This document shows positions 16,203 through 43,012 of a DNA stretch of 56,882 bases, piece by piece; positions within the stretch are counted from its first letter, which is position 1, and each line of letters opens with the position of its first letter. The stretch is taken from NCBI GenBank assembly GCA_042570465.1, contig JBHPGO010000003.1:1-56882 (forward strand), in the 5' to 3' direction. The stretch comes from Patescibacteria group bacterium. GTDB lineage: Bacteria > Patescibacteriota > Microgenomatia > PFEM01 > JBHPGO01. Under the pieces are notes generated by a model that had not been told where the DNA came from, ran no database searches, and was given only the letters and a program-made list of their open reading frames with translations. The position numbers and the translations under genes were made by a program.

Positions 16203-16277
16203 ATTACACATTGTAAATCGCTCATTAAATATATCTTGAATTGTACATTTTACATTATTAATTATTCATTAACATAT

Positions 16278-16349
16278 TCCGCGGTAGCTCAATGGTAGAG
16301 CGGTCGACTGTTAATCGACTGGTTGTAGGTTCGAGTCCTACCCGCGGAG
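16278..16349 (+). tRNA. tRNA-Asn(GTT)
   Basis: cloverleaf; acceptor TCCGCGG/CCGCGGA, anticodon loop CTGTTAA, GGTTCGAGTCC. Confidence 0.95.
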
Positions 16350-16471
16350 CAAGATGGGCGTTAATAGAACTTCTTTTAGCCTTGTAAATTGCAGTTTTTC
16401 CATTGATTTTGTGTGGTTTATAAAAAGGTCAGCTTCATATAAAATAAGCTTGAGGAAACCGTAGAAATACA

Positions 16472-16612
16472 ATGAAAAAGAAAAAAGCCAAAGCAACATT
16501 TATGCAGTTTGCCAAGAAAGCAAAGACAAAGGATTATATGGCGACAGCTTTCTGGTATCATATGTTTTTCGTTCCCAGCAATCTGTCATTGAATGAGTTT
16601 TTTAAGAAATGA
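16472..16612 (+). CDS. small basic hypothetical protein (46 aa)
   Basis: ORF ends in an ATGA overlap with the next gene. Confidence 0.35.
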   Translation: MKKKKAKATFMQFAKKAKTKDYMATAFWYHMFFVPSNLSLNEFFKK

Positions 16613-17529
16613 ATATGAAAAAGCCAAAAATTGTCGTTACCAGCCCAATGAATTTTCTTCCTGAACAGAGGAAAAGACTAGAAAAACTTGGTGATGTAAG
16701 AATCTACGATACACTTCCCAAATCTCCTGATGAATGGATGAAAAGAACTGAAGGATATGAAATTGTTTGTAGTGGAAAATATGGTTTAACCGAGAGGATA
16801 TATGAGAGGAAAAATGTCTTTTATTCTCTACCGTTTGTTGCAGTTGGTTGGATTGATATAAAGAAACTACAAGAAGCTGGAAATACTGTTTCTTACTCTC
16901 CGGGATGTAATAGTTATGCAGTAAGTGAGTGGATAATATCTTCAACTCTCTTATTAATGAGAAAGTTTGATCGCTTAGTAAATACTAAAAAGCTAAAGAA
17001 TAAAACCGGCTCACCTGACTACTTTGGACTTGCTGATAAAAAGGTATGTGTTTTGGGTAAGGGACATATTGGTTCAAAAGTGGGCAAAGTATTGAATAGC
17101 TTAGGCATGGAAGTTAGTTATTATGGCAGAAGTGACGATTTAATTAAAAAAGTAAAAGGGCGTGATGCTGTAGTAAATACTCTGAGTTCCAACGAAAGTA
17201 CTCAGGGATTACTTGATAAGAGGTTTTTTGATTCATTCTCTGGTAAAACATTTTTTCTTACTGTTACTAGTTTAAAGATATATGATTCGGAAGCAATGCT
17301 CGAAGCATTGAAAAAAGGAAAGCTCCTTGGTGTGGCTGATGATTGTGGGAGTATTTTACCTGGAGATTATGATGATCCTTACTACAAAAGGCTTTTAAAG
17401 ACTACTGGCGTTATTGCAACTCCACACATTGCATATCAATCAGATGTATCTATAAGAATTAGCAATGATATGTTGATTGATAATGTCGAAGCTTGGATAA
17501 AAGGAAAGCCAATACATTTATTGAAATAA
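16609..17529 (+). CDS. D-isomer-specific 2-hydroxyacid dehydrogenase
   Basis: PGCNSYAVSE, GKGHIG, TPHIAY. Confidence 0.85.
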   Translation: MNMKKPKIVVTSPMNFLPEQRKRLEKLGDVRIYDTLPKSPDEWMKRTEGYEIVCSGKYGLTERIYERKNVFYSLPFVAVGWIDIKKLQEAGNTVSYSPGCNSYAVSEWIISSTLLLMRKFDRLVNTKKLKNKTGSPDYFGLADKKVCVLGKGHIGSKVGKVLNSLGMEVSYYGRSDDLIKKVKGRDAVVNTLSSNESTQGLLDKRFFDSFSGKTFFLTVTSLKIYDSEAMLEALKKGKLLGVADDCGSILPGDYDDPYYKRLLKTTGVIATPHIAYQSDVSIRISNDMLIDNVEAWIKGKPIHLLK

Positions 17530-18125
17530 TGATGCATAAACAACTAATTACTTGTGTTCTACATGGTGGTGAAACCTCAAGGAAGTCACCATATAACGAT
17601 TTGTTTTTTAAGCAATTCACTGAATTGGTGGACAAAAAAACTATAAAGATATTGATGTGTTATTGGTCAAGGGATAAGAGTAAGTGGGATGAGTTGCTTA
17701 AAAGGGATAGTGAGAAAGTGTTGAAGCAAACAAATAAGAAAGTGGTTTTTACCCTAGTGGGAAGTGTTAAGGATTTATACAAGCAACTTGCAGACAACGA
17801 TGTTTTGTATGTAGCAGGTGGTGACGCTGAATTGATCGAACCATTTCTTCCCAATATTAAAGATCTCAAAAAACATCTTCAAGGAAAAGTTTATATTGGG
17901 AGTTCGATGGGTGCTTTTATTGTTTCTAAACATTATGTGCTGTCGTTTGACAGTCAAGATTCGAACAGTGTCCACGATGGGATAGGGATGATTCCTATAA
18001 ATACACTCTGCCATTGGGATCCAGAAACTAGAAAGAGTCAAAAAATTAGCTTACTTAAAAAGAAAACTCCAAACATACCAATACTCACCCTAGACGAGTG
18101 TAAGCATGTAACATTTGTTATTTAA
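17529..18125 (+). CDS. peptidase S51 (peptidase E)-like protein
   Basis: LYVAGGD, YIGSSMGA, CHWD. Confidence 0.8.
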   Translation: MMHKQLITCVLHGGETSRKSPYNDLFFKQFTELVDKKTIKILMCYWSRDKSKWDELLKRDSEKVLKQTNKKVVFTLVGSVKDLYKQLADNDVLYVAGGDAELIEPFLPNIKDLKKHLQGKVYIGSSMGAFIVSKHYVLSFDSQDSNSVHDGIGMIPINTLCHWDPETRKSQKISLLKKKTPNIPILTLDECKHVTFVI

Positions 18126-18338
18126 CGTATTTCAGGGACTAGCTACTACTGCAGGTTGTAACTTCTTTATCTCCTCCCATCTGATCTTTAATACCTCCAT
18201 TTCCCCAACATTTTCAAAAGCCTGAATGATCGCCTTAATGGAAAATTGTAGGATTTCAGGTGATGGGAGCCCAATAGGACACTATTTAAATCCTCTTTTC
18301 CCTCTTGACTTTTTGTATGAATATTGTATGATTAGTGT

Positions 18339-18572
18339 ATGGCTACGATTAACATCTCGCTACCGATTAAGCTGAAAACACAAGCAGAAGCTCTCGTTAA
18401 GGGTGGCTATTATGCTTCTTTTAGTGATTTGGTTAGAGATTCGCTGCGTCGCCTAGTCGAAAGGGGCAAGTATGATTTGTGGTTGGATGAAGCCAAGGAC
18501 GACTTGAAGAAAGGTAAGGCGGTGATTTTAAAATCTGGTAAAGAGATTAACGAATATCTTAAGAAAGTATAA
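18339..18572 (+). CDS. RHH/CopG-type antitoxin
   Basis: INISLP...YASFSDLVRDSLRRL; directly upstream of toxin. Confidence 0.8.
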   Translation: MATINISLPIKLKTQAEALVKGGYYASFSDLVRDSLRRLVERGKYDLWLDEAKDDLKKGKAVILKSGKEINEYLKKV

Positions 18573-18833
18573 ATGTACCGACTGGTCCTCTCTTCTGCTT
18601 TTCAACGACAGTTGAAAAGACTTGTTAAAAGAAATCCACGCTTGAAAGGCAAGATTAAAAAGATTTTCGAATACCTAATCAAAAACGTCAATCACTCCTC
18701 ATTAAAACTCCACAAATTATCAGGCAAGAATAATTGGTCGATTTCGGTCACTCACGATATTCGGATAATTATCCATTTGGAAGGAGATCAAATCTTCTGC
18801 CTTCGGATTGGTTCCCACGATCAAGTTTATTAG
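18573..18833 (+). CDS. RelE/YafQ-family mRNA interferase toxin
   Basis: LKLHKLSG...WSISV..DIRII...IGSHDQVY. Confidence 0.85.
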   Translation: MYRLVLSSAFQRQLKRLVKRNPRLKGKIKKIFEYLIKNVNHSSLKLHKLSGKNNWSISVTHDIRIIIHLEGDQIFCLRIGSHDQVY

Positions 18834-18967
18834 AATTTGGAAGGCTTCGAATCTGCCAGAAACTTCAGATAATCCCACTCACTTTTGAAGATCAATCCAC
18901 GTTCAGTGCCTCGGTTGATGATGTGGTAAAATAATCCTGGAACAACCTGGCGGGCGTACCTGGGCAT
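18830..18967 (-). pseudogene. N-terminal fragment of Y1 (IS200/RAYT-like) transposase
   Basis: manual translation MPRYARQVVPGLFYHIINRGTERGLIFKSEWDYLKFL, stop after 45 aa; no HUH motif or catalytic Tyr. Confidence 0.75.
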
Positions 18968-18983
18968 AATTATCTACTAGTCT

Positions 18984-19187
18984 ATGCCAAAAAAAGGCCT
19001 TTGTGTCAAACTATCCTGGGTCTGTCCCTGTTGCCCTCTAGAGCTATGGACCCCTGCCTACTTTGACCCCACTAACAAAAAATTTATTCGCGTCAAAGAG
19101 GCAGAAAGCGTGTTCCTAGACAGAAAAGCGATAGTAAGCATAGAAAAAATCTCAGATAAAGAAGCTATAAAAATCTATAAAAAATAA
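18984..19187 (+). CDS. hypothetical protein
   Basis: ORF only. Confidence 0.4.
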   Translation: MPKKGLCVKLSWVCPCCPLELWTPAYFDPTNKKFIRVKEAESVFLDRKAIVSIEKISDKEAIKIYKK

Positions 19188-19225
19188 AAGCCGCTACTTT
19201 GTTTTTCGAAAATCTCGAGCGGTTA

Positions 19226-19302
19226 AAACTTGAAGTCGCCTATCACTCATACCTCTCACCCTCTTTTCCAAAACAATCTCTCATTTCCCAAGTCTAGGAA
19301 AT
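19226..19302 (+). repeat. dispersed ~80-bp repeat (copy 1; copy 2 at ~33400-33475)
   Basis: AAACTTGAAGTCGCCTATCACTCATACCTCTCACCCT... vs AAACTCGAAGTCGCCTGCCACTCATAGCTCTCACCCT... Confidence 0.7.
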
Positions 19303-19343
19303 TGATAATTTTGGTCGGCGTGGGGTTTTGATATAATGAACCC

Positions 19344-19727
19344 GTGAAGACAAAAATTGAAACTCCAAAAGCGATGCTTCCGGGCGAAAGCCCACATTCT
19401 CAAGCAATCGTAGCAAATGGTTTTGTATTTACTCAGGGCGTAATTTGTTTGACTCCCAAAGGTAAAGTGCTCGAAGGGACAATTGAGGAGCAAGTTCATC
19501 AGATAATGAAAAGCCTCCAAGCTATCCTTAAGGAAGCAGGCACTTCATTTGAAAGTGTGGTAAAAACTACGATTTTTGTGACTAGCATGTCGATTTATGG
19601 AAAAGTGAATGAGGTTTATAAAGGTTACTTTTCTGATCCCTATCCTGCCAGAGAAACAGTTTGTGTGAAAGAGCTTCCCTTGGGTGCCGAGGTGGAAATT
19701 AGCATGATAGCAGTGAGCGAGAAATGA
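19344..19727 (+). CDS. RidA/YjgF family protein
   Basis: HSQAI, VVKTTIF, PYPARETV, LPLGAEVEI. Confidence 0.9.
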   Translation: MKTKIETPKAMLPGESPHSQAIVANGFVFTQGVICLTPKGKVLEGTIEEQVHQIMKSLQAILKEAGTSFESVVKTTIFVTSMSIYGKVNEVYKGYFSDPYPARETVCVKELPLGAEVEISMIAVSEK

Positions 19728-20065
19728 GAGAAGTTCATAAAAACGAGGCAAAAAAACATCAAAATAGCGAGGTGTGTCTAGCTGTTGAGTATCCCTTGGG
19801 AGATAAAGACATTAACGGCGCTGTTATTCATTTAAGTGGCAGGTACCCCGACGAGGGGAGGGTGGTTAACGAGGAGTGCAAAGAATTAGCTTACGTCATC
19901 AATGGCTCAGGAAAATTGGTGGTGGAAGGTAAAGAAGTTGAATTGAATGAAGGCGACATGGTTTTAATTGAACCTGGAGAGAGGTATTTTTGGGACGGTA
20001 AAATGACCATGTTTGTACCTTGTGTCCCCGCTTGGACTCCCGAACAACATAAAGAAGTTAAATGA
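19724..20065 (+). CDS. cupin domain protein
   Basis: ELAYVINGSG...LNEGDMVLIEPGE. Confidence 0.8.
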   Translation: MREVHKNEAKKHQNSEVCLAVEYPLGDKDINGAVIHLSGRYPDEGRVVNEECKELAYVINGSGKLVVEGKEVELNEGDMVLIEPGERYFWDGKMTMFVPCVPAWTPEQHKEVK

Positions 20066-20295
20066 GTAAGCTGAAAGTTGGTAAATGCCAGCATTATAAA
20101 GGCAAATTACATGAAGTTATTGGCGTGGCTCGCCACAGTGAGACTTTAGAGGAATTGGTGGTTTACAAAGCTCTATACGAAAGCAAGGATTTTGGTAAAG
20201 ATGCTTTATGGGTAAGGCCATTGAAAATGTTTCTGGAAAAAGTTGAGGTTGACGGTAATAAGGTTCCAAGATTCAAATTTATTGGAGGAAAATGA
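20062..20295 (+). CDS. DUF1653-family protein
   Basis: HYKG, ARHSETLEELVVYKALY, WVRPLKMF, PRF. Confidence 0.85.
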   Translation: MSKLKVGKCQHYKGKLHEVIGVARHSETLEELVVYKALYESKDFGKDALWVRPLKMFLEKVEVDGNKVPRFKFIGGK

Positions 20296-22073
20296 AAAAA
20301 ACCTTAAAACACTCCTTAAGAGTTCTTGCTATTTCCTGGAAGGCAAATCGTTTTTATCTCCCACTCTCAATTTTCAGTAAGGTGTATCAGGATACTTTGT
20401 ATCCACTGGTTATGGTGATTTTATTGGCACGCATTATTGACATGCTTGAGTCATCGCAGATATTATCCGTCTCCGACTTCAGCCTTATAATATCTCTATT
20501 TGTTGTAGCTTCACTTTTGAAATTAACACTATCTAGTTTTTTAGATGTTAAACAGGCCTATTTGGATTTTAAGCTTGAAGCATGCCTGGATATAGAAATT
20601 GCTGAAAAGCTGGTAAGTCTCGACCCTGCAACTTTGGAAATGCCAAGTTTTCAGAGTTTACTTGCCCAAATAGAGGGGGCAAAAGGAGCTATCCAAAAGC
20701 ACATTATCCGCCTGATAGCTTTTATTAGTGCTATTTTCAAGGTTGTTACAGCAGCCATAGTGGTCTTTTCAGCTTTTCCAATTGTTATCCCCTTAATATT
20801 ATTGGCAACGATCCCTTCGTATTTGGCTTGGGATAGAACTAGAAAGAAAACCTGGATCTACTACACGAAGAAGCGTTCATTAATGGTTAGAGTTACGAGA
20901 TACATTAAAACTCTTCTTTTTACCGACTCCACTTCCAAAGAGGTGGCTATATTCAAAACTGGCCCAGTGTTGTTGTCAAAAATTAAGAAGCATCAGAAGA
21001 AGTACTTCAACAGTTTTAACAAGGCAAATAATCCAAGAATGGTTGAGATTATTCTTGCAAGAATCCTTCAGTTCTTTGTTTTTATTTACACCCAGTATCT
21101 AAATTTGACTGCGGTTTTGAAGGGAACGCTTAGTCTTGGTCAATTTGCACTAATTTTTTCACAGACATATAACTTGGCCACATCTTCAGAGGACATACTG
21201 AATCAATACTCCAGCATTTCAGCACGAAATAAACACCTAGATCTGTTTTTTAAGTTTCTAGAAACCAAAAGAAAAGTCTCGTTACCTAAATCGCCAAAAC
21301 CAATGAGAAAAAAACCGTACCCGCCAATAATTGAATTTAACAATGTGTCATTTCGATATCCGGGTACCAAAAGAGATATTCTCAGGGGATTTAACTTGAC
21401 AATAAACAGTGGGGAGAAAATCGCACTTGTGGGAGAAAATGGTGCAGGAAAAACAACATTGATCAAATTACTATTGCGATTCCACGATGTAATCAATGGC
21501 GAAGTATTGATTAATGGAATGAATATTAAGGAGTTGGATTTAGATGAGTGGCACAAATTGACAGGAGCGCTTTTCCAAGATTTTATTAAATACCAATTCA
21601 CTTTTAAAGAAAATGTATATTTTGGAGACTTAGAGGAATCAGGAAATATGAAATTATTTACTAAAAGCATTGAAGGGTCAGGTGCAAGTACTTACTTAGG
21701 AAAGCTGCCCAAAGGTGAGAGTCAAGTGCTTGGAAAGATGTTTGAGGGTGGTATTGACCTTTCAGGTGGACAATGGCAAAAACTTGCCCTTGCAAGGGCG
21801 TTTTTCAGAAATGCGCCAATTCTTGTCCTTGACGAACCCACAAGTGCAATTGATGCGAAAGCAGAGTATGAAATATTCCAAAAGGTACAAAAGCTACAAA
21901 AGGATAAAACAGTTATGATCATCTCTCACAGATTCTCGACCGTTAGAAACGCGGACAGAATCTTAGTGTTAAATGAAGGAAGAATTATTGAAGAGGGTGA
22001 TCATAAAGAATTAATGAAGAAGAAGGGCCTGTATGAAGAATTGTTTACATTACAGGCTCAAGGATACAAGTAA
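20292..22073 (+). CDS. ABC transporter ATP-binding/permease fusion
   Basis: GENGAGKT, LSGGQWQ, LVLDEPT; N-terminal TM domain. Confidence 0.92.
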   Translation: MKKTLKHSLRVLAISWKANRFYLPLSIFSKVYQDTLYPLVMVILLARIIDMLESSQILSVSDFSLIISLFVVASLLKLTLSSFLDVKQAYLDFKLEACLDIEIAEKLVSLDPATLEMPSFQSLLAQIEGAKGAIQKHIIRLIAFISAIFKVVTAAIVVFSAFPIVIPLILLATIPSYLAWDRTRKKTWIYYTKKRSLMVRVTRYIKTLLFTDSTSKEVAIFKTGPVLLSKIKKHQKKYFNSFNKANNPRMVEIILARILQFFVFIYTQYLNLTAVLKGTLSLGQFALIFSQTYNLATSSEDILNQYSSISARNKHLDLFFKFLETKRKVSLPKSPKPMRKKPYPPIIEFNNVSFRYPGTKRDILRGFNLTINSGEKIALVGENGAGKTTLIKLLLRFHDVINGEVLINGMNIKELDLDEWHKLTGALFQDFIKYQFTFKENVYFGDLEESGNMKLFTKSIEGSGASTYLGKLPKGESQVLGKMFEGGIDLSGGQWQKLALARAFFRNAPILVLDEPTSAIDAKAEYEIFQKVQKLQKDKTVMIISHRFSTVRNADRILVLNEGRIIEEGDHKELMKKKGLYEELFTLQAQGYK

Positions 22074-22295
22074 CCACGTAGATCTGGTTTGTCTCTTATG
22101 AGCGATTAACCAAAAGCTGGAATAAAAATAGGTTCTTTTACGCCTAACAAAAAGGTTCGAACTCTGTCCCCCACACAAGTTTAGCATTCGGCTTTTGGGA
22201 ACTATTCGTTCACGCCTCATGCTGCACTTTGGCGGGGCAGGCACGCTCCCCAGCATAGTGTACGAACTTAGAAGCTGTTTTGATATACTTCAGTT

Positions 22296-22844
22296 GTGGC
22301 AATAAGACCAAAGCTGGTTTCTGTCTCAATTCCTGAATACACAGTCGATTCTCAACCCGATTATGTTGCTATCGGAGCCAAGATAGATAAGGTTTTGGAA
22401 GAAAATTTTGAAGGGTATTTCTTGGAACGAGTTTTGAGTCTGACTGACCATCCTAGATACAATCTCGACGAATTGGTGAATATTATTATCAAAACAGGAA
22501 CTGACAAATATGATCCAAATCGCAAGGGTGTCGCTCACGAACAATTTGAACCATATAAGCCCGATTTACAAGCTGGAGAGATTAAGATACATAGTGGCAA
22601 GTTGAATAATCCACATAGTACAGGACTCATAAAACTTTTCTATGAAAATGTTCTTTTGGATAGGGGCTACAGATTGAGAATTGACCTTATTCTTTTGTAC
22701 GACCCTAAGCAATTGGTCCGGGCTGAAAAAGTTGACTATACAAAACCAAGTGTCGATCCAAACCTTGAACAATATCTTTGGAGATTTAAGGATCCGAATA
22801 ATAAACAAAAAGCCTTGTTAGGAATTATTAAAATATTGAGGTAA
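22296..22844 (+). CDS. hypothetical protein (cassette cargo)
   Basis: 182-aa ORF starting 6 nt after TGATATACT. Confidence 0.65.
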   Translation: MAIRPKLVSVSIPEYTVDSQPDYVAIGAKIDKVLEENFEGYFLERVLSLTDHPRYNLDELVNIIIKTGTDKYDPNRKGVAHEQFEPYKPDLQAGEIKIHSGKLNNPHSTGLIKLFYENVLLDRGYRLRIDLILLYDPKQLVRAEKVDYTKPSVDPNLEQYLWRFKDPNNKQKALLGIIKILR

Positions 22845-23116
22845 TCAAAAAGACACACCTTGTGTTAAATGGGGCGAGGGCAAAATGTTTGCCGATGAGA
22901 GTAAGGAATAACCTCGAAGCTTGTATGCTAAAGGGAGCTAGTAGAATCGAAATTATTTGTCTCTTGAAGTTTTAGGCTTGCGTAGAATAATTTAACGTCG
23001 TCCAGGTTGTATTCAAACTCAATCTTTCGGTTGCAGAATAAGTCCTTTAGGGGGAGCTGATTTGTTCTTAATCTAACCACTTTAATACTTTACTATTTCT
23101 ATAGTAGAATAAAGTC

Positions 23117-23560
23117 ATGTTGTTTTGGGTTGTCTTAATAATCTTCATCTTAGTAGTTGCATATTTAGACCAAATTGGTTGGCTACAATATCAAGCTAAA
23201 GTAAAGGACAGGAAGATTCATTTAAGACATTATTTTAAAAAGAAAGAGATTGATATTGATTCAATTACTAAGGCAAGAACCCTTTTAAAAGGTGCATACG
23301 CTACAAAGGTTGTACAGGTTAAGACTGGCGAGAATTGGGAAGACATAGCAAAGATAACCTTCTTAAATTATAAAAATAATTCTACGCTTCTTAATTCTTT
23401 GAAATCTTTAAATCCAAATATAGAATTTTCACCTGAGCTAGGAGATTATTCAAAAGCTGGTAATATCGGAGACTACTTTATAAACAAAAAGCAGATAATT
23501 AGAGGATTATTGTTACTTTTAATATTTGCCTTTCTTATTTTGATATCGTATTTGTTTTAG
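23117..23560 (+). CDS. membrane protein, possible PH-like domain (cassette cargo)
   Basis: N- and C-terminal TM helices; starts 6 nt after TAGAAT. Confidence 0.6.
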   Translation: MLFWVVLIIFILVVAYLDQIGWLQYQAKVKDRKIHLRHYFKKKEIDIDSITKARTLLKGAYATKVVQVKTGENWEDIAKITFLNYKNNSTLLNSLKSLNPNIEFSPELGDYSKAGNIGDYFINKKQIIRGLLLLLIFAFLILISYLF

Positions 23561-23937
23561 CCTTTCTCTATTCTGTTCGATTATCGCTACATTTTGAAAA
23601 ACCTTAATAATTTCAGTTAGATTAATCCTAGGACTAGGGAGCCAATCTTTTGTTTTGTTGGCTTCTAGTATTGCATCAAACGGCATTTTGAGGCTAGGAA
23701 TGAGCTTTTTGCCGTCCATTTGCGAGTTCTGAAACAAATAGAATAATAGCTCTCTTTTTTGATGAGCGTCTGCTTTTTCAAACAATTCGTGTGCTTTATG
23801 TGCTAATTCCAGTAGCTTACTAGCCTTAACAAAGTAGTTTTCGTCAGCGTTACTATGTTGTTCCATCTGTATTATCAAATCTGCCTGTATCCTCTTATAC
23901 TTGCTCAGTAGCGTGTCATACTTATCTTCTGTAATTC
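23519..23937 (-). pseudogene. 3' remnant of large serine recombinase fused in frame to a cassette tail
   Basis: ITEDKYDTLL...HSNADENY...QKRELLFYLFQN...PFDAILEANKTKDW|LPSPRINL; no catalytic N-terminal domain. Confidence 0.7.
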
Positions 23938-24813: not shown

Positions 24814-24817
24814 AGTT

Positions 24818-25930: not shown

Positions 25931-26034
25931 GCAAAATTAAAATTGTAGTTATCAAATTCGTATTTTGAGTAATCAAGTGTTCTGAATGTATTTATTAGGG
26001 GGAGCTGAACTTGTCTTAATCTAACCTCTTTCTT

Positions 26035-26988
26035 GTGGTAAGATTGAATCTAGTGAATAAAGAATCTCGTAAATCTATAATTACAGTAATCCTGCTACTT
26101 CTATCTCCTCTTCTTTCCTGGTCCCTAACTCCAATTACAATGATTCCAGCAGCAATAATTGGCAGCTTTGTTACGAGAGGCTGTAAAGGCTCAATGTGTG
26201 GTTTTGCTGAAGGTATTTTTATCACGGTTTTTCTTAATATTATTGCGGCTTATATTATTTCCCTCAGTATTTATTTATTGACTCATAAAAAAGAAAAGCC
26301 CAGAAAAAAAATTATCGTTGCAAGCTTACTCCTTTTATACTACGCAGCTTTGGTATCTGGGTTTATTTTATTTGCCAGGCATGAACAAGGAAAGTTAGAA
26401 AGAAAAAATCTGGAGGTTATTGAATCTCTACAGACGTTGGAAGCAAAAGATATTGTTTTTGTTGAAAGGACAGTGCGGATAAACAAAACTGACTGGAAAA
26501 TTTATACAAAAGACAATTTGGCTTATCAGATTAAGTACCCAAAAAACTTTAGAATTCAAGACCACCAGGCTCCAACTAACTATGTTTTTCGTGCCCCTGA
26601 TGATTCTTACCCTTCTGCTAAGTGGAACAGAAACAATCAATTTTTCACTCTGGGAGGGTTCAATAAAAAATTCCAACAATTTCCTGATGACAATGAAGCG
26701 ATAAATCAAGCTATCAAGAATATAAATAATGCAAACATTAAAACTCCCTCATTTCCTACCAAAATCAATGAGCCTGCTGAAAAATCTATTTCAACTCGGG
26801 GGTGGAAATTCTATTTTATTGAAAAAGGTAGTAGGAAAACTACAAAAGAAGGTTTGGAATTTGATGAATTATCTATCGTTATCAATGTTCCTGGGAGGGG
26901 ATATTTATTTTGGGGAGGACATACAACTTTTGAAGGTGGGCTTGAACTAATCAAACAGGTTGTTGAGGAAGTGGAGGAGATTAGATAG
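26035..26988 (+). CDS. membrane protein with PsbP-like C-terminal domain (cassette cargo)
   Basis: TM helices, then WKIYT...YQIKYP motif. Confidence 0.6.
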   Translation: MVRLNLVNKESRKSIITVILLLLSPLLSWSLTPITMIPAAIIGSFVTRGCKGSMCGFAEGIFITVFLNIIAAYIISLSIYLLTHKKEKPRKKIIVASLLLLYYAALVSGFILFARHEQGKLERKNLEVIESLQTLEAKDIVFVERTVRINKTDWKIYTKDNLAYQIKYPKNFRIQDHQAPTNYVFRAPDDSYPSAKWNRNNQFFTLGGFNKKFQQFPDDNEAINQAIKNINNANIKTPSFPTKINEPAEKSISTRGWKFYFIEKGSRKTTKEGLEFDELSIVINVPGRGYLFWGGHTTFEGGLELIKQVVEEVEEIR

Positions 26989-27149
26989 CAGACTCCCTAG
27001 AAACTTAAATTCTTTATTTGTTTCAATCTTTCTCTTGCCTGTTCAGCAATTACTACAGTTTGAAAAACCTTAATAATCTTACTTAGATTAATCCTAGGAC
27101 TAGGGAGCATAGTGTACGAACTTAGAATCTTCTTTGATATACTGCCATT

Positions 27150-27788
27150 ATGGTATCCAAGAGCCTTCTTTGGCATTACACACAGTTGCTTCAAGAGTAC
27201 GGCGACCCAATAACATACTGGCCACAGTGGTGTGCCAAAACAAAGTCCGTAAAAGAGCGAGAGAAAATTATTATTGGGATGGTTTTAGTCCAGAGAACAA
27301 GTTGGCATAACGCCAATATCGCTCTTAAAAACCTTAAAAAAGAAAACTTGTTATCAATCAGGAAAATCTCTGAATTAAAATCACTAGATAAACTTACCCA
27401 ACTGATTCGATCTGCCGGTTTTTACCAGTCAAAGCCTAAACGCCTATTTGATATATGCGCCTTTGCTATTGGCCAAGGAGGCATAAGTAGACTGATAAAG
27501 AGGGATGCCTCAAAATTGAGGTTAGACCTTCTCGACATTAAGGGCGTTGGTCAAGAAACCGCTGACACAATCCTGCTTTATGCCCTAGATAAACCAGTTT
27601 TTATTATTGACGAATATGCTCGACGCTGGGTTGAAAAGAATGGCATAACAAAAGAAAAAGATTATCTTAAATTACAACAGTTTTTCCACGATAATCTAAA
27701 AAAAGACCTCCTTATTTATCAGAATTTTCATACGCTTATTATCGTTTGCCAGCGAGGTAGGGAAAAGTCAGTAATGGAAGTTGTATAA
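27150..27788 (+). CDS. HhH-GPD endonuclease III-like DNA glycosylase
   Basis: LVQRTSW, IRSAGFYQSK, IKGVGQETADTILLYA, IDEYARR. Confidence 0.88.
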   Translation: MVSKSLLWHYTQLLQEYGDPITYWPQWCAKTKSVKEREKIIIGMVLVQRTSWHNANIALKNLKKENLLSIRKISELKSLDKLTQLIRSAGFYQSKPKRLFDICAFAIGQGGISRLIKRDASKLRLDLLDIKGVGQETADTILLYALDKPVFIIDEYARRWVEKNGITKEKDYLKLQQFFHDNLKKDLLIYQNFHTLIIVCQRGREKSVMEVV

Positions 27789-28707
27789 AGGAGGGGAGCA
27801 TAAAATACAAACTTATAGAAATAATGTCGGCGCTTCTCGGATAGGTAGTGACACAGCTACCAAAATAATCCCAATATCGAATAGTATTGGGGTTACAGTT
27901 GCTGGACCTGCCTTTTTGACTGATCCATCTACGCGAAAATCAAATCCAAGAAGCATAGCCACTTTTATCAACGATTATGCTTCTGGCTTAAAAGGTCAAA
28001 AGACAATAAAAAGCATTGCGGAGGGCCTAAAAACATATCTAACTGACATTTATCGCCCGGAGGAGCAGCTTAAAAAAATAGAGAAAGAAATTGAGGAGCG
28101 CATCAAGCGAATGAAGGGTGAGATTGAGAGTAGTGAGCGTGGTGAGGATAAAGAGAAGATAGTTGTCAGTTTCAAAGACAGTGACGGGAAGTTGCAAAAA
28201 GCAATCGGCGCAGTTACCCCAATCTCTTTGATTGTGGCCGGTTATGACAGGGGCAAGGATGGTGAGAAAAAAATGTCTGTCTATGTGATCTATATCCCGG
28301 GTAAGCTGGTGAATAAGCGCAAGCACGATAATGTTAATCAATATGGCGCCGACTGGACGGGCCAAAAAGATGTCGTCGCCAGGGTGATATTGGGTAGAGA
28401 CCCCAGGACACCAGCTCTCGGCTTTGCCCAAGAGGCGATTAACAGATTGGGAGAAAAAAAGGTACTTGATGAACTAAGAAGGCTTGAATATAGGATAAAT
28501 TGGGGCGGAATGACTCTCTTTGATGCTGTCGATTTTGCCACTCTAATGATAGAGATAACGGCAGCTATTCAGAGATTTTCCGACGGTATCCAGTTAACAC
28601 CCGGTGATTTGCCCGGTGTTGGTGGTGGTGCTGACGTGGCAATAGTAACTCCGGATAGCGGTTTTCACTGGCACAAGCGTAAGGAGCTAAAACTAGAGAA
28701 ACCTTAA
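27781..28707 (+). pseudogene. proteasome-beta-like Ntn hydrolase, apparently 5'-truncated
   Basis: KIIPIS..IGVTVAG, LIVAGYD, GVGGGADVAIVTP present; N-terminal nucleophile/GIVLAADS strand absent; 5' end at a GGGGAGC junction. Confidence 0.55.
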
Positions 28708-28879
28708 AGGTGGACCACTCTTATGGGGGTAGAAGCTTCTCGGTTGAGGAGAGGGGTTTGAGCTGGGTGATTAACAAATCACTACAGTTCAAGACGCTCC
28801 GTTGATTTAAGGTCGCCGCGTTTTTATTAACCCCTTGAGGTACTAACACAATTAGGGATCTATTGTATAATCTCATTAT

Positions 28880-29341
28880 ATGGAAATGGAGATTTTTACC
28901 GGAGTTGTCCTTTTAGACGACCGACAAAGAATTTACCTCATTAAAGAGGACGATGAAAATAAGATCGGACAAGATAGGTGGAATTTGCCCGGTGGCGGGA
29001 TTGATATTGGCGAGGGTATAATTGAATCCGCCAAGCGAGAAACTCTTGAGGAAACTGGTTATCAATCCAAGACAAAATCAATTCTCGGTGTTTACCAAGG
29101 CTCTAAGGTCGGTAAATCCTGGCTCTATGTTGTTTTAGGCGCCACTATCTCCGGTCCGACTCAAAAACCGGTAAAAGACGCCTCTATTAAGGCCGGAAAG
29201 TGGTTCGCAAAAGATGAATTTTTAGGTTTAGACTCCTCCTCTCTCGTCCATTCCGACATGAAATTGGTTTATCGGAAAGCGATTGGTGATAAGGGGCTGG
29301 GGCTGGATAGTGTTAAATTCGTCAATTATGATTCGAAATAG
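28880..29341 (+). CDS. NUDIX hydrolase
   Basis: WNLPGGGIDIGEGIIESAKRETLEETG Nudix box. Confidence 0.9.
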   Translation: MEMEIFTGVVLLDDRQRIYLIKEDDENKIGQDRWNLPGGGIDIGEGIIESAKRETLEETGYQSKTKSILGVYQGSKVGKSWLYVVLGATISGPTQKPVKDASIKAGKWFAKDEFLGLDSSSLVHSDMKLVYRKAIGDKGLGLDSVKFVNYDSK

Positions 29342-29376
29342 TTTCCCGTTTCGTTTTTTGATATACTAACCCCAAT

Positions 29377-29673
29377 ATGGCGGAAAATGAGCTAAAAGTT
29401 GAGGATTTCGGCAGAGAGTTTGAGACTAGTGGCGTTCTCCAAACCACGAAGGGCACGGTGGTCCCTCACGGGAGTAAAGTTGCTTTTGTCGGAGGCTTCA
29501 CTGACCCAACGGATGTCAAGGCTAGAAAGTACGTGGGGGGAGATTTTGGCACTTGGAATGTTTACCGAGTGGATACTGGCGAGGAGGGGGTAGAGCGGAT
29601 TCACGCTGAACCCGGCTCAACGGCCGACCAAAAAGCTAGAGGAGCTTGGAAGCCCCCAAAAGTAAAAAGATAA
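29377..29673 (+). CDS. hypothetical protein
   Basis: ORF after TGATATACT. Confidence 0.55.
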   Translation: MAENELKVEDFGREFETSGVLQTTKGTVVPHGSKVAFVGGFTDPTDVKARKYVGGDFGTWNVYRVDTGEEGVERIHAEPGSTADQKARGAWKPPKVKR

Positions 29674-29716
29674 AAATTAATCGATTGAGTCCCGTTTTTA
29701 TTAACCTCCAATAGTA

Positions 29717-30080
29717 CTAACACAACTGGGGATCTGTTGTATAAGCTCGATTTAGAGCCGGGGTTCGTTTTCGGGATTTAGTGGTTGAGATTGAAATTTG
29801 AATTTCAGCCGGTAACGAGGGGTTTAGAATCTGATCGATAAAAAAGTTTCTCACAGGTTCCAACCATCGGAGCCAATCCTTTGTTTTATTGGCTTCTAGT
29901 ATGGCATCAAACGGCATTTTGAGGATAGGATGAGCTTTTTGCCGTCCATTTGAGAGTTCTGAAATAAGTAAAACAATAGCTCTCTTTTTTGATAAGCATC
30001 CGCTTTTTCAAACAATTCGTGGGCTTTGTGTACCAATTTCAATAGCTTGCTAGCTTTAACAAAGTGGTTTTCGTCTCAGC
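29717..30080 (-). pseudogene. second, frameshifted 3' remnant of large serine recombinase plus a different tail
   Basis: 29874-~30075 is a near-copy of 23643-~23845; PFDAILEANKTKDW|LRWLEPVRNFF. Confidence 0.7.
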
Positions 30081-30122
30081 CATATTTACTTTTCGTCTCA
30101 TTTATGAGACGATTTAACTGTT

Positions 30123-31175
30123 ATGGACCCCACACTTAACTCAAGACAAAAAAGTATAATTAATGCTCTAAAGAGTAACGGTAAATTGAGTAGAGCTGAA
30201 ATTACAAACCTTCTGTCTAAGACTAAAAAGGTTTCCCGGCCTACGGTTATCAGAGATTTAAACGAATTATTGGCACTTAAAATTGTTAAAACCGAAGGAG
30301 GAGGAAGGGCAACCGTATATAGATTGAGTCAGGAAAATTCGTTATTGCAATACTTTGATGTAGACGATTATTTCTCTCGAGGCTTATATGACAGAAGTGC
30401 AATGAAAAATTTTAATCCTGGCGTATTTGACAGCCTAGCTTCTTTGTACAACAAAAGCGAGATTGCGCTGTGGGAGAAGAGTGTGAAAGAATTTTCCAAG
30501 AGATCTCAAAAACTAGACCCCACCATTTACAAGAGAGAGTTGGAGAGGTTTATCATTGAATTGTCTTGGAAATCTTCACAGATTGAAGGAAACACCTATA
30601 CCTTGCTTGAAACAGAAACGCTCATAAAACAAAGAATCCGTGCCAAAGGTCATGCCGAAGGCGAAGCTATTATGATCTTAAATCACAAATACGCTTTCGA
30701 TGAAATGCTTAACAACAAGGAGCGATACAAAAAACTCACGCTTTCTAAAGTAAGTGATCTTCACTCCATCCTTGTTCGCGGACTTGGAGTTTCAGAAGGA
30801 ATCAGAAAAGAGAGAGTGGGTATAACCGGCACTATCTACAAACCCATAGCAGATTCGACCAAATTACACAAAAAATTACTAGAGCTTATTGATCATGTAA
30901 ACTCGGTTGATTACCCTCCAGAAAAGGCACTGATTATCGCAGCAATGGTGGCGTATTTACAGCCATTTGCTGACGGAAACAAAAGGACTTCTAGAATGCT
31001 GGCAAATGCAATATTGCTGGCATATGGTTATTATCCGCTATCTTACAGAGATGTTGATGTGAATGAATACAAGAAAACCATGCTACTTTTTTATGAACAA
31101 AACAATCTCTATCATCTTAAGCGAATATTTATAGAGCAATTGCAATTTGCAATGGACAACTACTTCAGGGTGTGA
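30123..31175 (+). CDS. Fic-family protein with N-terminal HTH
   Basis: QPFADGNKRTSR Fic motif, SSQIEGN. Confidence 0.9.
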   Translation: MDPTLNSRQKSIINALKSNGKLSRAEITNLLSKTKKVSRPTVIRDLNELLALKIVKTEGGGRATVYRLSQENSLLQYFDVDDYFSRGLYDRSAMKNFNPGVFDSLASLYNKSEIALWEKSVKEFSKRSQKLDPTIYKRELERFIIELSWKSSQIEGNTYTLLETETLIKQRIRAKGHAEGEAIMILNHKYAFDEMLNNKERYKKLTLSKVSDLHSILVRGLGVSEGIRKERVGITGTIYKPIADSTKLHKKLLELIDHVNSVDYPPEKALIIAAMVAYLQPFADGNKRTSRMLANAILLAYGYYPLSYRDVDVNEYKKTMLLFYEQNNLYHLKRIFIEQLQFAMDNYFRV

Positions 31176-31301
31176 TCATATACTTGCCTTGCTGTAGCAA
31201 TTGAACCATTCGGATAATATCCAGCAGACGAAGCCCAATAGGACACTATCCGAACCCCATTTACCCCTTGACATTCCATACAATTATTGTATCATTAATG
31301 T

Positions 31302-31535
31302 ATGACTACAATTAACATTTCATTACCAATCAAACTTAAAACACAAGCAGAAGCCCTGGTCAAAGGTGGCTATTATGCTTCTTTTAGTGATCTAGTGAGA
31401 GATTCGCTCCGTCGTTTAGTCGAAAAAAGTAAGTATGATTTATGGTTGGATGAGGCAAAAGAAGACTTAAGAAAAGGCGAGGCTGTAGTTTTAAAATCTG
31501 ATAAGGAGATTGACAACTATTTGAAGGGGACTTAG
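31302..31535 (+). CDS. RHH/CopG-type antitoxin (paralog of 18339)
   Basis: protein nearly identical to 18339-18572. Confidence 0.8.
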   Translation: MTTINISLPIKLKTQAEALVKGGYYASFSDLVRDSLRRLVEKSKYDLWLDEAKEDLRKGEAVVLKSDKEIDNYLKGT

Positions 31536-31536
31536 A

Positions 31537-31797
31537 ATGAGTCAGGTTATTCTCTCCTCCACTTTTCAACGACAACCTAAAAAGCTTGTCAAGAATAATC
31601 CCAGACTGAAAAGCAAAATTAACAAGATCTTAAATTACCTAATCAAAGACATTAGCCATTCCTCACTTCGGCTTCACAAGTTATCTGGAAGAAACAACTG
31701 GTCAATATCGGTAACCCACGATGTTCGAATGATTATTCATTTGGAGGGAAACCAAGTTTTCTGTCTTCGCATCGGTAGCCACGATCAGGCCTACTAA
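31537..31797 (+). CDS. RelE/YafQ-family toxin (paralog of 18573)
   Basis: LRLHKLSG...WSISV...IGSHDQAY. Confidence 0.82.
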   Translation: MSQVILSSTFQRQPKKLVKNNPRLKSKINKILNYLIKDISHSSLRLHKLSGRNNWSISVTHDVRMIIHLEGNQVFCLRIGSHDQAY

Positions 31798-31935
31798 TAT
31801 TTGCAGTTAATCAACGTAAAAACACCCCCCAGAGATGGGTAGGCCACACGTTCTTTGTCTAGATTTCATTTATTTTGGAATGAGACCAATATCTTTGATA
31901 TACTTCAAATATGAACAAAAAGGAGGTGACTATTA

Positions 31936-32217
31936 ATGGCAGGTAAAAAAGATTCATGCAATGAAGAGCAAATCAAAGATTGGATTGAAAAAGGAGTTAA
32001 AAAACTAGAAAACATGGATTGTAAAGATAAAAAAGGGATAAAAAAACATGCTGGTTCTGGAGCGGCCGGGACAATTTGGTTTTTGGGTTTTATCGGTGCA
32101 GTAGTCTATTTCATTCAACAGGCAACCTCTTTTGGAGCAGGACTGATTGGTTTATTCAAAGCCCTGGTATGGCCAGCGTTTCTAATCTACAATTTGTTGG
32201 AATTTCTCAAAATATAA
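31936..32217 (+). CDS. small membrane protein
   Basis: RBS AGGAGGTG; GFIGAVVYFIQQA...KALVWPA. Confidence 0.7.
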   Translation: MAGKKDSCNEEQIKDWIEKGVKKLENMDCKDKKGIKKHAGSGAAGTIWFLGFIGAVVYFIQQATSFGAGLIGLFKALVWPAFLIYNLLEFLKI

Positions 32218-32279
32218 GTAGGTTTTGTCTGGATTTACCTCAAGCTGGCACAAACATCGTTCACGATGGGAAAGCTATT

Positions 32280-32573
32280 CTACCTGGGGGTGGTATTCTC
32301 AGAAATTTTCAATCTCTCAAGTAATTTAAGTGTGACCTTTACAGAGGGATTGTTAGTGTTTTTTAAAACCACGCGATTACCGAATCGCTCAACTAATTTT
32401 GTTATAAACTCATCAGCCCAAGATGGTGTAAAAGTAACAACTTCTTTAAAATCAATTTCTATTTGTTCGTTTTCAACTAAGTTTTGAAGCTGTGGATTCA
32501 TGGCAGCAAGAGCTTCCCGACCGTCTTGCCGAGATGTTAATATATTTCCAAATTTTTTTAGTTCTATCTTCAT
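32280..32573 (-). CDS. STAS-like (DUF4325) protein
   Basis: LTSRQDGREA...IDFKEV..FTPSWADEF. Confidence 0.8.
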   Translation of the reverse strand: MKIELKKFGNILTSRQDGREALAAMNPQLQNLVENEQIEIDFKEVVTFTPSWADEFITKLVERFGNRVVLKNTNNPSVKVTLKLLERLKISENTTPR

Positions 32574-32577
32574 AGTT

Positions 32578-33297
32578 TTAAAATGAGAACAGTGCCAGGC
32601 ACCCACTATAATATACATTAATTTTCTCACATTTTATTTTTTTATCATTTTCACTAATAATTACATTGGCGCTGCCACTATAAAAATTAAGTTTTAATGG
32701 GTTGCTTGTGATTACTTCCCGTACGAACTTAAGTCCATTCCCCCTTGCTTCCGGAGCCCTACCCGACAGGGTTTCTGTAAAGGCTATGTGTAGTGCCTCC
32801 TCGTCATTTTCTATACTAGGCCTTACCCTTCTTAAGGTTCTCAAAATACCCAAACCTCTGTCTGCCAATGCTATTTGTTTTTTATTCACATCAAATCCAA
32901 AAAACACTCCAGGAATATCTGGCCAATTACCCAAATTATGATCATAGGAGTTATTTCCAATCTCCCCTGCTACCGCAACAATTAGAGGGTAGTAATCCTG
33001 TAGGGCTTCGATTTTACCTAAAGCACTTTGTAACTTCGATAATCGCGTTTTAAACTCTATGCTTGTTGGACAATAGAATTCATTTTTTGGTTCTTGAGGT
33101 TTTTCTAAAACCCACTCTACGGCCAGTGCGAAAATATCTTGTTTATAAAGATCTAGATCTAGCTTTGAATAATATCGATGGCCTCCTGGACTTTTTTTAG
33201 CACGAAGCTTTCCACTCTTATCCCAACGTCTTAGTGTATCAATTGACACATTAAGGTAATTAGCTGCTTCGCCTATACTTAGTATTTGTTTTAGCAT
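32578..33297 (-). CDS. MerR/excisionase-type HTH fused to HATPase-like domain
   Basis: SIGEAANYLNVSIDTLRRWD..GGHRYY; EIGNNSYDH, DRGLGI, GNGLK. Confidence 0.82.
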   Translation of the reverse strand: MLKQILSIGEAANYLNVSIDTLRRWDKSGKLRAKKSPGGHRYYSKLDLDLYKQDIFALAVEWVLEKPQEPKNEFYCPTSIEFKTRLSKLQSALGKIEALQDYYPLIVAVAGEIGNNSYDHNLGNWPDIPGVFFGFDVNKKQIALADRGLGILRTLRRVRPSIENDEEALHIAFTETLSGRAPEARGNGLKFVREVITSNPLKLNFYSGSANVIISENDKKIKCEKINVYYSGCLALFSF

Positions 33298-33575
33298 AAA
33301 TCTATGTATTATTTATACCATAATTAACATATCTATGCAAGTAAATACCAAATCTATGCAAATTCTGTCGCCAACAGCGATGAACTCGTTAATTGCATAA
33401 AACTCGAAGTCGCCTGCCACTCATAGCTCTCACCCTTCTTTCAAAAATAATCCTTCATTTTCCAAGCTTAGAAATCCGTCATATAGCGGAGATAATTTTT
33501 TTGAATAAGTCGCGATACATTCCGGAATCTTAAGATATTTAGGAGTTGATTGTAAGCAAATGGTAAAATTCTGCC

Positions 33576-34550: not shown

Positions 34551-34552
34551 AT

Positions 34553-42850: not shown

Positions 42851-42896
42851 TTAAGTAATACTTTACCCAGCCGCTGTTTCGACATTAACTAACTTG

Positions 42897-42983: not shown

Positions 42984-43012
42984 TTATTAATTAATAATTT
43001 TAAAACCTACGG

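Follow-up and report, generated by a model that had tools for sequence, protein, structure and literature searches.

The stretch analysed here, referred to as the window, is the whole 56,882-nt contig C3 of assembly G000, from a Patescibacteria group bacterium; the assembly comprises 968 kb in 54 contigs and is 79% complete with 3.4% contamination. Its region from 16.3 to 33.5 kb, which begins at the 3' end of a tRNA-Asn gene, is probably a tandem array of about ten units built by serial recombination by a large serine recombinase (LSR), and the junctions between the units would be hybrid attachment (att) sites. In the best reading of the region, the array holds two decayed LSR elements together with several units without LSR. 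A first-pass annotation, made from the letters and without database searches, had described the locus as an integron-like array of cassettes with shuffled half-sites; the observation is confirmed here, and the interpretation put upon it is partly supported. Throughout, the AGC triplet common to the junctions is called the core, the DNA to its right a right arm (a to f) and the DNA to its left a left arm, or a tail arm (tailX, tailX', tailY and tailZ) where it encodes a peptide; the ten proposed cores are numbered S0 to S9.

Break points, arm shuffling and symmetry at the core

A repeat search of 15.5-35 kb recovered the described arms as families bounded by AGC, mostly within GGAGC, and every arm string quoted in the first-pass annotation was found in place. 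Family D11/D1/D2 pairs the DNA from 18268 onward with that from 31232 onward, D8 pairs 22252-22299 with 27106-27153 (85% identity), D10 pairs 23047-23083 with 25995-26031 (86%), D6/D3 pairs 23638-23845 with 29869-30075, and D4 pairs 23549-23642 with 27015-27108 (83%) and stops at AGC. That similarity between copies breaks at AGC was borne out by a gapped blastn comparison of 16001-34600 with the whole assembly and one related metagenome contig, L024, in which the 28 non-self high-scoring segment pairs have 52 distinct endpoints, 12 of them lying no more than 3 nt from a proposed AGC, at nine of the ten proposed cores (all except 27797). Random sets of ten out of 251 AGC triplets collect 0.71 endpoints on average and 5 at most, and none of 10000 draws reaches 12. 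Since the cores had been picked from repeats in the first place, this test is partly circular; what does not depend on the picking is that GGAGC, which occurs 22 times in 16001-34600, stands at seven of the nine break points, and that copies lying off the array on contigs C24 and C2 break at GGAGC as well. In particular, the tailX arm (22967-23057) is 78% identical to C24:6645-6555, stopping at AGC, and arm c is identical to C2:18033-18004 (100% over 30 nt) from GGGAGC onward. The core at 27797 (S7) had been regarded as weaker from the outset, and it is: no repeat endpoint falls there in the blastn comparison, homology to an HhH-GPD gene region of L024 (window 27131-27788) ends 9 nt before the core, and the right arm resembles arm b, by eye, at about 16 of 22 positions.

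The shuffling of half-sites is real. The tailY left arm is paired with arm d at 23640 and with arm b at 27106; arm d follows tailY at 23640 and a tRNA-like arm at 29871; arm b stands behind two different left arms (22252 and 27106), as does arm a (18268 and 31232). Units 4 and 6 have both ends in common (arm c and a tailY arm) and contain unrelated ORFs of 147 and 317 aa. A unit of L024 matches the HhH-GPD unit (unit 7) at 70% identity over 659 nt; it also stands behind a tailY-like arm, and its right arm is a different one, f. Arm f (AATTTCTACGGATTTCT...) recurs after the core in L024 (twice) and in genomes G151, G178 and G241. On C2, a junction of a tailY-like arm with arm c is present as such, and this is what the removal of unit 5 from between S4 and S5 would leave. 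Units 1-4, 6-8 and 10 are bounded by cores, arranged in tandem and devoid of a recombinase ORF. A pattern search of the 968-kb assembly found eight tail-bearing cored sites, seven with GCTCC plus S9. Six of the eight lie in a 13-kb stretch of the array, and single sites occur on C2 and C24, away from the tRNA at which accumulation had been proposed.

TailY and arm c are also symmetrical about the core. In tailY, GTTAGATTAA ends 14 nt before AGC, and in arm c its exact reverse complement, TTAATCTAAC, starts 10 nt after AGC, which places the symmetry centre at the G/A just left of AGC, within GGAGC; arm e carries TTAATAGAAC, with eight of the ten bases of the arm c motif, at the same offset of 10 nt past the core. 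In LSR att sites the zinc ribbon contacts motifs about 13-22 bp from the centre, and in the core sites of tyrosine recombinases the inverted repeats lie 3-4 bp from it. By analogy, the spacing of the tailY/arm c repeat is that of an LSR att site. A 5-nt common core at seven of the nine supported junctions and a 10-nt perfect inverted repeat are found together, as in att sites, and junctions of a tRNA with an LSR gene end and of a tail with flanking DNA bound elements on L024 and six more loci.

Recombinase remnants and the tails encoded by the left arms

The link with an LSR comes from arm d. A minus-strand ORF at 23519-23878 reads ...LKMPFDAILEANKTKDW-LPSPRINL..., and 12 longer proteins match arm d, ten of them of 402-519 aa; the top three matches, all proteins of 494 aa, reach 87-95% identity in the leading two thirds of the query. 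In precomputed Pfam annotation the relatives P0003-P0010 carry Resolvase (PF00239), Recombinase (PF07508) and Zn_ribbon_recom (PF13408), and they end in ...KDWL or ...NWL/TWL plus 2-25 residues (e.g. RR, PG, PREDSDLQP, GDRDSN); such endings are what the antisense reading of a tRNA 3' end yields. With P0003 as query, tblastn matches the window at 23935-23639 (99 aa, 93% identity, P0003 residues 394-492) and at 30075-29899 (59 aa, 83%, with a second frame). The second LSR copy (29874-30075, about 70 aa, minus strand) is broken by stops and a change of frame, and Pfam found no domain in either copy. Only C-terminal pieces are present here and the full-length relatives carry all three domains, so the window copies are remnants rather than working members of the family. 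Thus the recombinase remnant reported in the first-pass annotation is a genuine LSR C-terminus and the junctions are LSR crossover sites; its statement that the array has no intact integrase also stands, since a Pfam scan of the 28 ORFs of 16.6-34.6 kb found no intact recombinase.

P0003 is encoded on the metagenome contig L024, where the last 12 bases of its gene overlap a tRNA-Asn on the opposite strand. In the orientation of the window this contig reads tRNA-Asn...GCCGG AGC CAATCC..., and its likeness to both window remnants begins at GGAGC. The junctions on L024 and its kin show that this family integrates at the 3' end of tRNA genes by a crossover in GGAGC. Of 80 LSR loci returned, seven in which the match was cut by a contig end were left out; in 35 of the remaining 73 a tRNA (by the rule of an ARAGORN tRNA within 60 nt of the match end) lies at the LSR 3' end, namely 26 Asn, 5 Gln and one each of Glu, Asp, His and Ser. 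Six further loci reach a contig end, and 32 have no tRNA by this rule, many of them reading ...WLP.DSN..., tRNA-derived in look. No terminal overlap indicating circularity was present in the seven LSR contigs examined, L061 and L083 included. The family occurs in many phyla, with records titled Saccharibacteria, Paceibacterota, Dependentiae, Gammaproteobacteria, Bryobacterales, Brevundimonas and others; the closest named relative, at 62% identity, is from a metagenome-assembled genome titled Candidatus Daviesbacteria.

Remnants of the same kind are found elsewhere. In a set of 61 related genomes, which includes G000 and otherwise lies outside the host's own genus and family, 23 remnant matches occur in 17 genomes (G000 among them). 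At least eight other genomes (G037, G042, G003, G059, G034, G001, G035 and G060, with loci L005, L007-L012 and L015) have only a C-terminal LSR frame of 100-170 aa beside a tRNA-derived ending (...WLPREDSNL...), which indicates that decay of these LSR genes is common; decay with the 3' end kept beside the tRNA seems to be the rule. The two LSR ORFs of the assembly, C24:9405-11045 and C20:15654-17321 (546 and 555 aa), have unrelated C-termini and do not end at a tRNA, which makes them doubtful as cognate enzymes; the C24 gene, which may yet be one, lies 2.9 kb from the solitary tailX/core site (C24:6555), with a 497-aa ORF between them. Arm e was considered as an LSR remnant and rejected, its 53-aa minus-strand ORF at 16338-16499 having no LSR similarity.

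The left arms also have a coding content. Most of them, when the minus strand is translated leftward from the core in frame with W-L, encode a tail of 25-45 aa: tailZ at core 18268 (LPSPEILQFSIKAIIQAFENV...RWEEIKKL, 45 codons open), tailX at 23055 (LPLKDLFCNRKIEFEYNLDDVKLF..., 42 codons), tailY at 23640 (LPSPRINLTEIIKVFQNV..., 40 codons), tailX' at 26003 (LPLINTFRTLDYSKYEF..., 25 codons) and tailY at 27106 (LPSPRINLSKIIKVFQTV..., 36 codons). At S4 a single open frame, ...KTKDW-LPSPRINLTEIIKVFQ..., runs on the minus strand through the junction. The tailY arm, of about 95 nt, is near-identical in three genomes of other families (L006, L014 and L017), and its copies diverge directly after GGGAGC (after the G run in L017). 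A 16-nt tailY word, searched with at most one mismatch in 401 genomes sampled from the class, is present in 16 of them, this one included, as against two hits for the reversed pattern used as control; in 16 of its 23 distinct occurrences GGAGC follows 4-6 nt after the word, and diverse right arms come next.

Selection on the tail is confined to one frame. Of 22 tailY-type arms, 18 keep the W-L frame open over 31 codons or more, whereas in nearly all of them a stop comes after 2-7 codons of either other frame. The ratio of nonsynonymous to synonymous polymorphism (pN/pS), computed for the ten of 13 arms from G151, G178 and G241 that are in register, is 0.24 in the W-L frame, as against 1.60 and 1.08 in the two remaining frames. 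The third codon position is the most variable one in the distal 75 nt of these arms (0.276, versus 0.108 and 0.052), and the 39 nt adjoining the core have no periodicity (0.123, 0.115 and 0.115), as expected for a protein-binding half-site. A tail arm may accordingly be read as a half-site of about 40 nt under DNA-level constraint, followed by a stretch under protein-coding constraint. Since the tail lies in the LSR frame and is under purifying selection in that frame only, the arms are best regarded as LSR att half-sites. The first-pass annotation had proposed an array without IntI or attC: no phage-integrase family was found, but the peptide encoded by the left arms is conserved and extends the LSR frame, so that the cassette end, being more than a binding site, formally plays the part of attC.

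Complete elements elsewhere show where the tail lies. In 160 LSR loci (1.94 Mb) a tailX-type pattern gives eight hits on the LSR strand and none on the opposite strand; at six loci it is located upstream of the LSR start, by 4.4-9.1 kb, and in two, L061 (a 521-aa ORF) and L083, the tail directly continues a full-length LSR. A tail placed either upstream of the LSR or fused to it implies an element with the order LSR end, LSR, cargo, tail, in which attP is the joint of tail and LSR end. The tRNA junction of L024 and its tailX' arm are 5.9 kb apart, and the latter has 85% identity to window 25902-26005; unit 5 of the window is thus a decayed copy of such an element.

One left arm is of a different kind. 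At S8 the alignment with L024 extends 12 nt beyond the core to the left, into the tRNA-Asn of that contig (29859-30075 with 7573-7790 of the L024 reverse complement), and this is the sole junction with a tRNA-like left arm; Rfam and ARAGORN detected no partial tRNA in 22-30 kb. Decay of tRNA halves was considered as a source of the tail arms and is unsupported, Rfam being negative both at the gathering score over the whole window and at E<=10 in 22-30 kb. TailY bears, by eye, a faint likeness to a T-arm read antisense.

Multi-site arrays were also found in three other genomes of the class and on L024. There are at least ten sites in 22 kb of G151:C3, at least eight in 13 kb of G178:C42 and two in G241:C19; on L024, a metagenome contig with an intact LSR beside a tRNA, further sites lie downstream of the LSR. 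The fetched stretches of G151, G178 and G241 contain no tRNA. A distant LSR (25-33% identity) exists somewhere in each of the five genomes searched (G151, G178, G241, G009 and G030). G151 and G178, of the same genus, have one 678-nt unit in common (82%) in different surroundings and with a left boundary that is not clean, a comparison that at most hints at reordering unit by unit.

Proposed assembly of the array, alternatives and known systems

The LSR family integrates at the 3' end of tRNA genes with its gene at the edge of the element, reading outward over a crossover within GGAGC, a word that covers the end of the acceptor stem, the discriminator base and the C that follows; the exact crossover dinucleotide probably lies around GG/GA, just left of AGC. 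Because the gene reads across the crossover, the integrated protein would end in a few tRNA-encoded residues (W-L-R-G-stop at this tRNA), and at a circle or tandem junction the LSR would be continued by a tail of 25-45 aa from the other edge of an element. The units have the form right arm, cargo, tail arm, two of them keeping the last 70-100 or so LSR codons and the others short non-coding arms (a, b, c and e). Later units, with or without an LSR, would enter at the tRNA junction or at existing junctions, producing tail-arm/right-arm junctions and new combinations of arms. LSR genes decay, as the two remnants here and those in at least eight other genomes show. From the shuffled arms and the arrays of other genomes we infer that repeated LSR recombination, either at the tRNA or at junctions already present, enlarged the array; the units without LSR would be non-autonomous and moved by an LSR in trans.

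A further proposal, possible but tentative, is a two-part system in which the LSR is split by its own crossover and its tail of about 40 aa is swapped on integration. The tail would act as a built-in switch of activity or direction, every unit would carry a spare tail, the unit upstream of the LSR would set the form of the enzyme, and the tail would be kept under selection as the means by which LSR-less units are moved, amounting to integron-like gene capture in bacteria of the candidate phyla radiation (CPR) type.

Several observations weigh against serial LSR recombination. In well-studied LSRs the only pair recombined, unless a directionality factor is present, is attP, the site on the phage or element, with attB, the chromosomal target; insertion into hybrid junctions would not be expected of such enzymes. 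The right arms a, b, d and f have no common motif, so that a single enzyme can hardly recognise them all. Cores S2 and S9 lack the GG, S7 lacks a tail, and the left arm of S8 appears to be a duplicated tRNA end, which is not the expected product of an LSR. Intact cognate LSRs at tRNA 3' ends, which the first-pass annotation had suggested looking for, exist elsewhere, at tRNA-Asn and with the same AGC, but this 79%-complete assembly has no LSR with a ...DWL C-terminus, and tblastn found no relative of the LSR in the fetched stretches of G151, G178 and G241. Finally, the tailY peptide was found on no long protein, although this search is weak evidence.

Plain tandem accretion followed by decay, in which each unit is the leftover of an autonomous LSR element whose LSR was deleted and nothing was mobilised in trans, is unlikely, though the two LSR remnants, cut at different points (23935 and 30075), and the C-terminal-only frames of the eight or more other genomes speak for it. 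Arms a, b, c and e, however, are not LSR sequence (minus-strand stops lie close upstream, and the arm e ORF was negative) and yet they start exactly at the core; arm c recurs with another partner on C2 and arm f in L024, G151, G178 and G241; and the units of 582 and 1100 bp are alike in both ends and not in cargo. Repeated deletions would each have needed to stop precisely at the core. A different enzyme, a tyrosine or Xer-type recombinase or a transposase to whose sites the LSR is only incidentally linked, would account for the lack of an LSR gene in most units and in the fetched arrays of the other three genomes, and for the want of a long protein bearing the tailY peptide. We consider it quite improbable: among the 28 ORFs of 16.6-34.6 kb Pfam hit neither a tyrosine recombinase nor a transposase family, the core falls within the W-L codons of the LSR, the tail is selected in the LSR frame, and the inverted repeats stand about 13 bp from the centre rather than at the 3-4 bp of tyrosine-recombinase core sites.

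It is more improbable still that segmental duplication, with homologous recombination or gene conversion among paralogous segments and no site-specific recombinase, produced the pattern. Several arms do occur in exactly two copies, and a module of ribbon-helix-helix (RHH) and ParE genes is duplicated over 573 nt; but identity across the junctions is only 5-8 nt, the copies are 75-94% identical with uneven divergence, arms lie beside unrelated DNA on other contigs and in other genomes, always breaking at GGAGC, and the core is the LSR/tRNA crossover seen on L024. Hardly credible, lastly, is an assembly artefact in which strains with different single insertions were collapsed into a chimeric array. 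The fragmentation of the assembly (54 contigs), its 79% completeness and 3.4% contamination, and the start of the G151 and G178 arrays at contig ends would allow it, but the array is interior to a 56.9-kb contig, independent assemblies have the same architecture, and repeated arms that are both so diverged (75-94%) and so short (30-200 nt) are unlikely to cause misjoins. Serial recombination by an LSR is therefore the explanation that we retain as probable.

The staphylococcal cassette chromosome (SCC) elements are anchored at the 3' end of the rlmH gene. Together with SCCmec they are the nearest working analogue of the array: tandem cassettes at one chromosomal anchor, repeated att sites, members without recombinase and accessory or defence-type cargo are common to both. 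The Ccr LSRs cut out and circularise SCCmec, and do so also with separate SCC-like cassettes that stand in tandem nearby, and accessory regions lie downstream of rlmH (PMC11470126). Here, by contrast, the anchor is the 3' end of tRNA-Asn and not rlmH, so the array falls outside an SCC defined by Ccr at rlmH; the units measure 0.6-4 kb, as against tens of kilobases for SCCmec, in a genome of about 1 Mb; the LSR gene spans its own attP, and the other end of the unit encodes a C-terminal tail. The LSR is probably of a family different from Ccr; and mobilisation has been seen for SCCmec, whereas for the present array it is a proposal. The tycheposons of Prochlorococcus likewise form successive elements at tRNA genes, integrating serially, with older elements pushed inward and degenerate remnants, 27 of 937 elements having an LSR instead of a tyrosine recombinase (bioRxiv 2020.12.28.424599). 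Partial tRNA copies separate the elements there, whereas here only S8 has a tRNA-like arm and the others have LSR tail arms; the present units are also far smaller, most of them lacking a recombinase. The idea of such an array thus has precedents, in the tandem LSR cassettes of SCC/SCCmec, cassettes outside SCCmec included (PMC11470126), and in the tRNA-borne tycheposons (bioRxiv 2020.12.28.424599).

With integrons the likeness is one of layout only: small units of one to a few genes, a fixed anchor, a conserved recombination end and unrelated cargo. Integrons rely on the tyrosine recombinase IntI, the attI site, attC cassettes and a common Pc promoter. Here Pfam found no phage-integrase family among the 28 ORFs of 16.6-34.6 kb and the chemistry would be that of serine recombinases; the unit ends are coding tail arms of about 95-115 nt with the GGAGC core, and some units have promoter-like sites of their own instead of a common Pc. 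In temperate mycobacteriophages with a tyrosine integrase and an attP inside a gene, integration truncates the repressor gene. There, as here, a crossover inside a coding sequence alters the C-terminus of the product, but here it is the recombinase's own gene that is cut. In the literature we found no LSR in which the crossover cuts the recombinase's own gene and integration thereby exchanges a conserved tail, and no kilobase-sized arrays of LSR units in CPR-type bacteria, although supplements, such as the lists of tycheposon elements, may hold some.

Bacteria of this kind, with genomes of about 1 Mb, are usually credited with few routes of gene exchange, and a swappable array anchored at a tRNA would be a compact device for gene capture. 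Among its cargo are toxin-antitoxin pairs, enzymes of DNA repair and of the NUDIX family, a transporter, membrane proteins of unknown kind and a Fic protein similar to SoFic, a candidate for defence. That the LSR family has a defined tRNA target is also of practical interest, LSRs being in use as tools for genome integration; furthermore, the integration-coupled swap of the C-terminus, if functional, would be a new way of controlling LSR direction.

Units, cargo and neighbouring features

The array is anchored at a plus-strand tRNA-Asn(gtt) gene (16278-16350; ARAGORN, and 74.4 bits in Rfam) that ends ...CCCGCGGAGC, its final bases forming the S0 core, GGAGC at 16346-16350. Unit 1 (16351-18267, plus strand) consists of arm e, two cargo genes recognised by Pfam, for a 2-hydroxyacid dehydrogenase-like (16609-17529) and a peptidase S51-like protein (17493-18125), and tailZ. 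S1 (GGAGC, 18266-18270) joins tailZ to arm a, which opens unit 2 (18271-22251, plus strand) with six cargo genes, also assigned by Pfam: an RHH antitoxin (18339-18572), a ParE/YafQ-like toxin (18573-18833), RidA (19344-19727), a cupin (19724-20065), DUF1653 (20062-20295) and an ABC ATPase protein (20292-22073, plus strand; PADLOC mad3, 106 bits). Its left arm, L2, contains a dispersed repeat and ends CCCCAGC, so that S2 (AGC, 22252-22254), between L2 and arm b, has no preceding GG.

The dispersed repeat of L2 (22105-22242) is about 60-75 nt long and contains AAAAAGGTTCGAACTCTGT; further copies lie at C7:17356-17406, 20936-20998 and 27554-27615, and a neighbouring piece at C29:5618-5691, about 110 nt from a tRNA-Pro gene. 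The end of L2 (CACGCTCCCCAGC) is found again at about C7:27600, ahead of a hairpin, and since it reads GGGGAGC on the opposite strand an inverted site may abut S2.

Unit 3 (22255-23054, plus strand) has arm b, a 182-aa ORF (22296-22844) of no known family and tailX, and S3 (GGAGC, 23053-23057) joins it to arm c of unit 4 (23058-23639, plus strand), a unit of 582 bp with its 147-aa ORF at 23117-23560 and its tailY arm at 23549-23639. At S4 (GGAGC, 23638-23642) tailY meets arm d of unit 5 (23643-26002, minus strand), the decayed LSR element, in which the C-terminal LSR remnant (23643-23935) and the tailX' arm (25902-26002) are accompanied by ORFs of 302 and 370 aa, neither of known family. S5 (GGAGC, 26001-26005) joins tailX' to arm c of unit 6 (26006-27105, plus strand; 1100 bp), with its 317-aa ORF at 26035-26988 and a tailY arm at 27015-27105, and S6 (GGAGC, 27104-27108) joins that tailY to arm b of unit 7 (27109-27796, plus strand), which encodes the HhH-GPD base-excision repair protein (27150-27788). 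The weak core S7 (GGAGC, 27795-27799) lies between this tail-less left side and the b-like right arm of unit 8 (27800-29870, plus strand), a unit with a 308-aa ORF, a NUDIX gene (28880-29341), a 98-aa ORF and a left arm like a decayed tRNA-Asn 3' end.

S8 (GGAGC, 29869-29873) separates the tRNA-like arm from arm d of unit 9 (29874-31231), whose strands are mixed: the second LSR remnant is on the minus strand and a Fic/DOC gene with an N-terminal helix-turn-helix (HTH), for which SoFic is the best PADLOC hit, on the plus strand (30123-31175). The left arm of unit 9 reads LRLLDIIRMVQLL and is tailX-like, judged by eye; a similar arm lies at position 4651 in the fetched stretch of G178:C42. At S9 (31232-31234) AGC is preceded by ACGA (ACGAAGC) and the tailX-like arm meets arm a of unit 10 (31235-33474, plus strand, right end undefined), which holds a second RHH/ParE-YafQ pair (31302-31797), 75% identical in DNA to the pair of unit 2, two small ORFs and a minus-strand gene for a 239-aa excisionase-type HTH protein (32578-33297; TIGR01764, 35.2 bits, above the cut-off). 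Six more ORFs of 98-370 aa have no match in Pfam or NCBIfam, five of the six having none in PADLOC either; for the 317-aa ORF Pfam gave nothing beyond a weak hit below threshold.

The 239-aa protein was also considered as an IS607-type recombinase and rejected, as the match to the IS607 model is confined to the HTH and, at 22.5 bits, falls well short of the cut-off of 110, and no resolvase domain is present. A PADLOC mad1 match likewise covers only the HTH, and the remainder looks, by eye, like a GHKL-type ATP-binding fold. The proteins matching mad1 and mad3 sit in the two arm-a units and are candidates for a directionality factor or a defence gene. Unit 10 closes with a 77-nt repeat (33398-33474) that is also present at 19224-19300 (82%) and ends the homology of both arm-a units, with no GGAGC at that place. 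In unit 10 the repeat lies about 100-180 nt upstream of the minus-strand HTH gene, a gene that is gone from unit 2, and it may be the leader or promoter region of that gene.

The first-pass annotation had given most units a promoter of their own. Good promoter-like sites do lie in both a arms (18305-18332 and 31268-31295), but the 50 sites counted are no overall enrichment over shuffled sequence (46.5 +/- 6.3). A 56-nt repeat (82%) with a CTAACA-17-TATAAT promoter-like site occurs at 28819-28874, upstream of the NUDIX gene, and again at 29693-29748, just before S8.

Around the array, GC skew turns from negative to positive at about 15 kb and back to negative at about 34 kb, following the switch of coding strand; the plus strand carries most genes of this stretch. 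Immediately upstream of tRNA-Asn, at 15843-16202, a 23S rRNA intervening-sequence protein is encoded (PF05635, 89 bits). Farther along the window, a minus-strand cluster at 42896-46377 comprises six tRNA genes (four Ser and two Arg) and a tmRNA gene (tag GNKQSQPSLAFA), and next to a tRNA-Arg gene, at 43562-43612, tblastn gave a weak match resembling a tail (17 aa, E 0.2).

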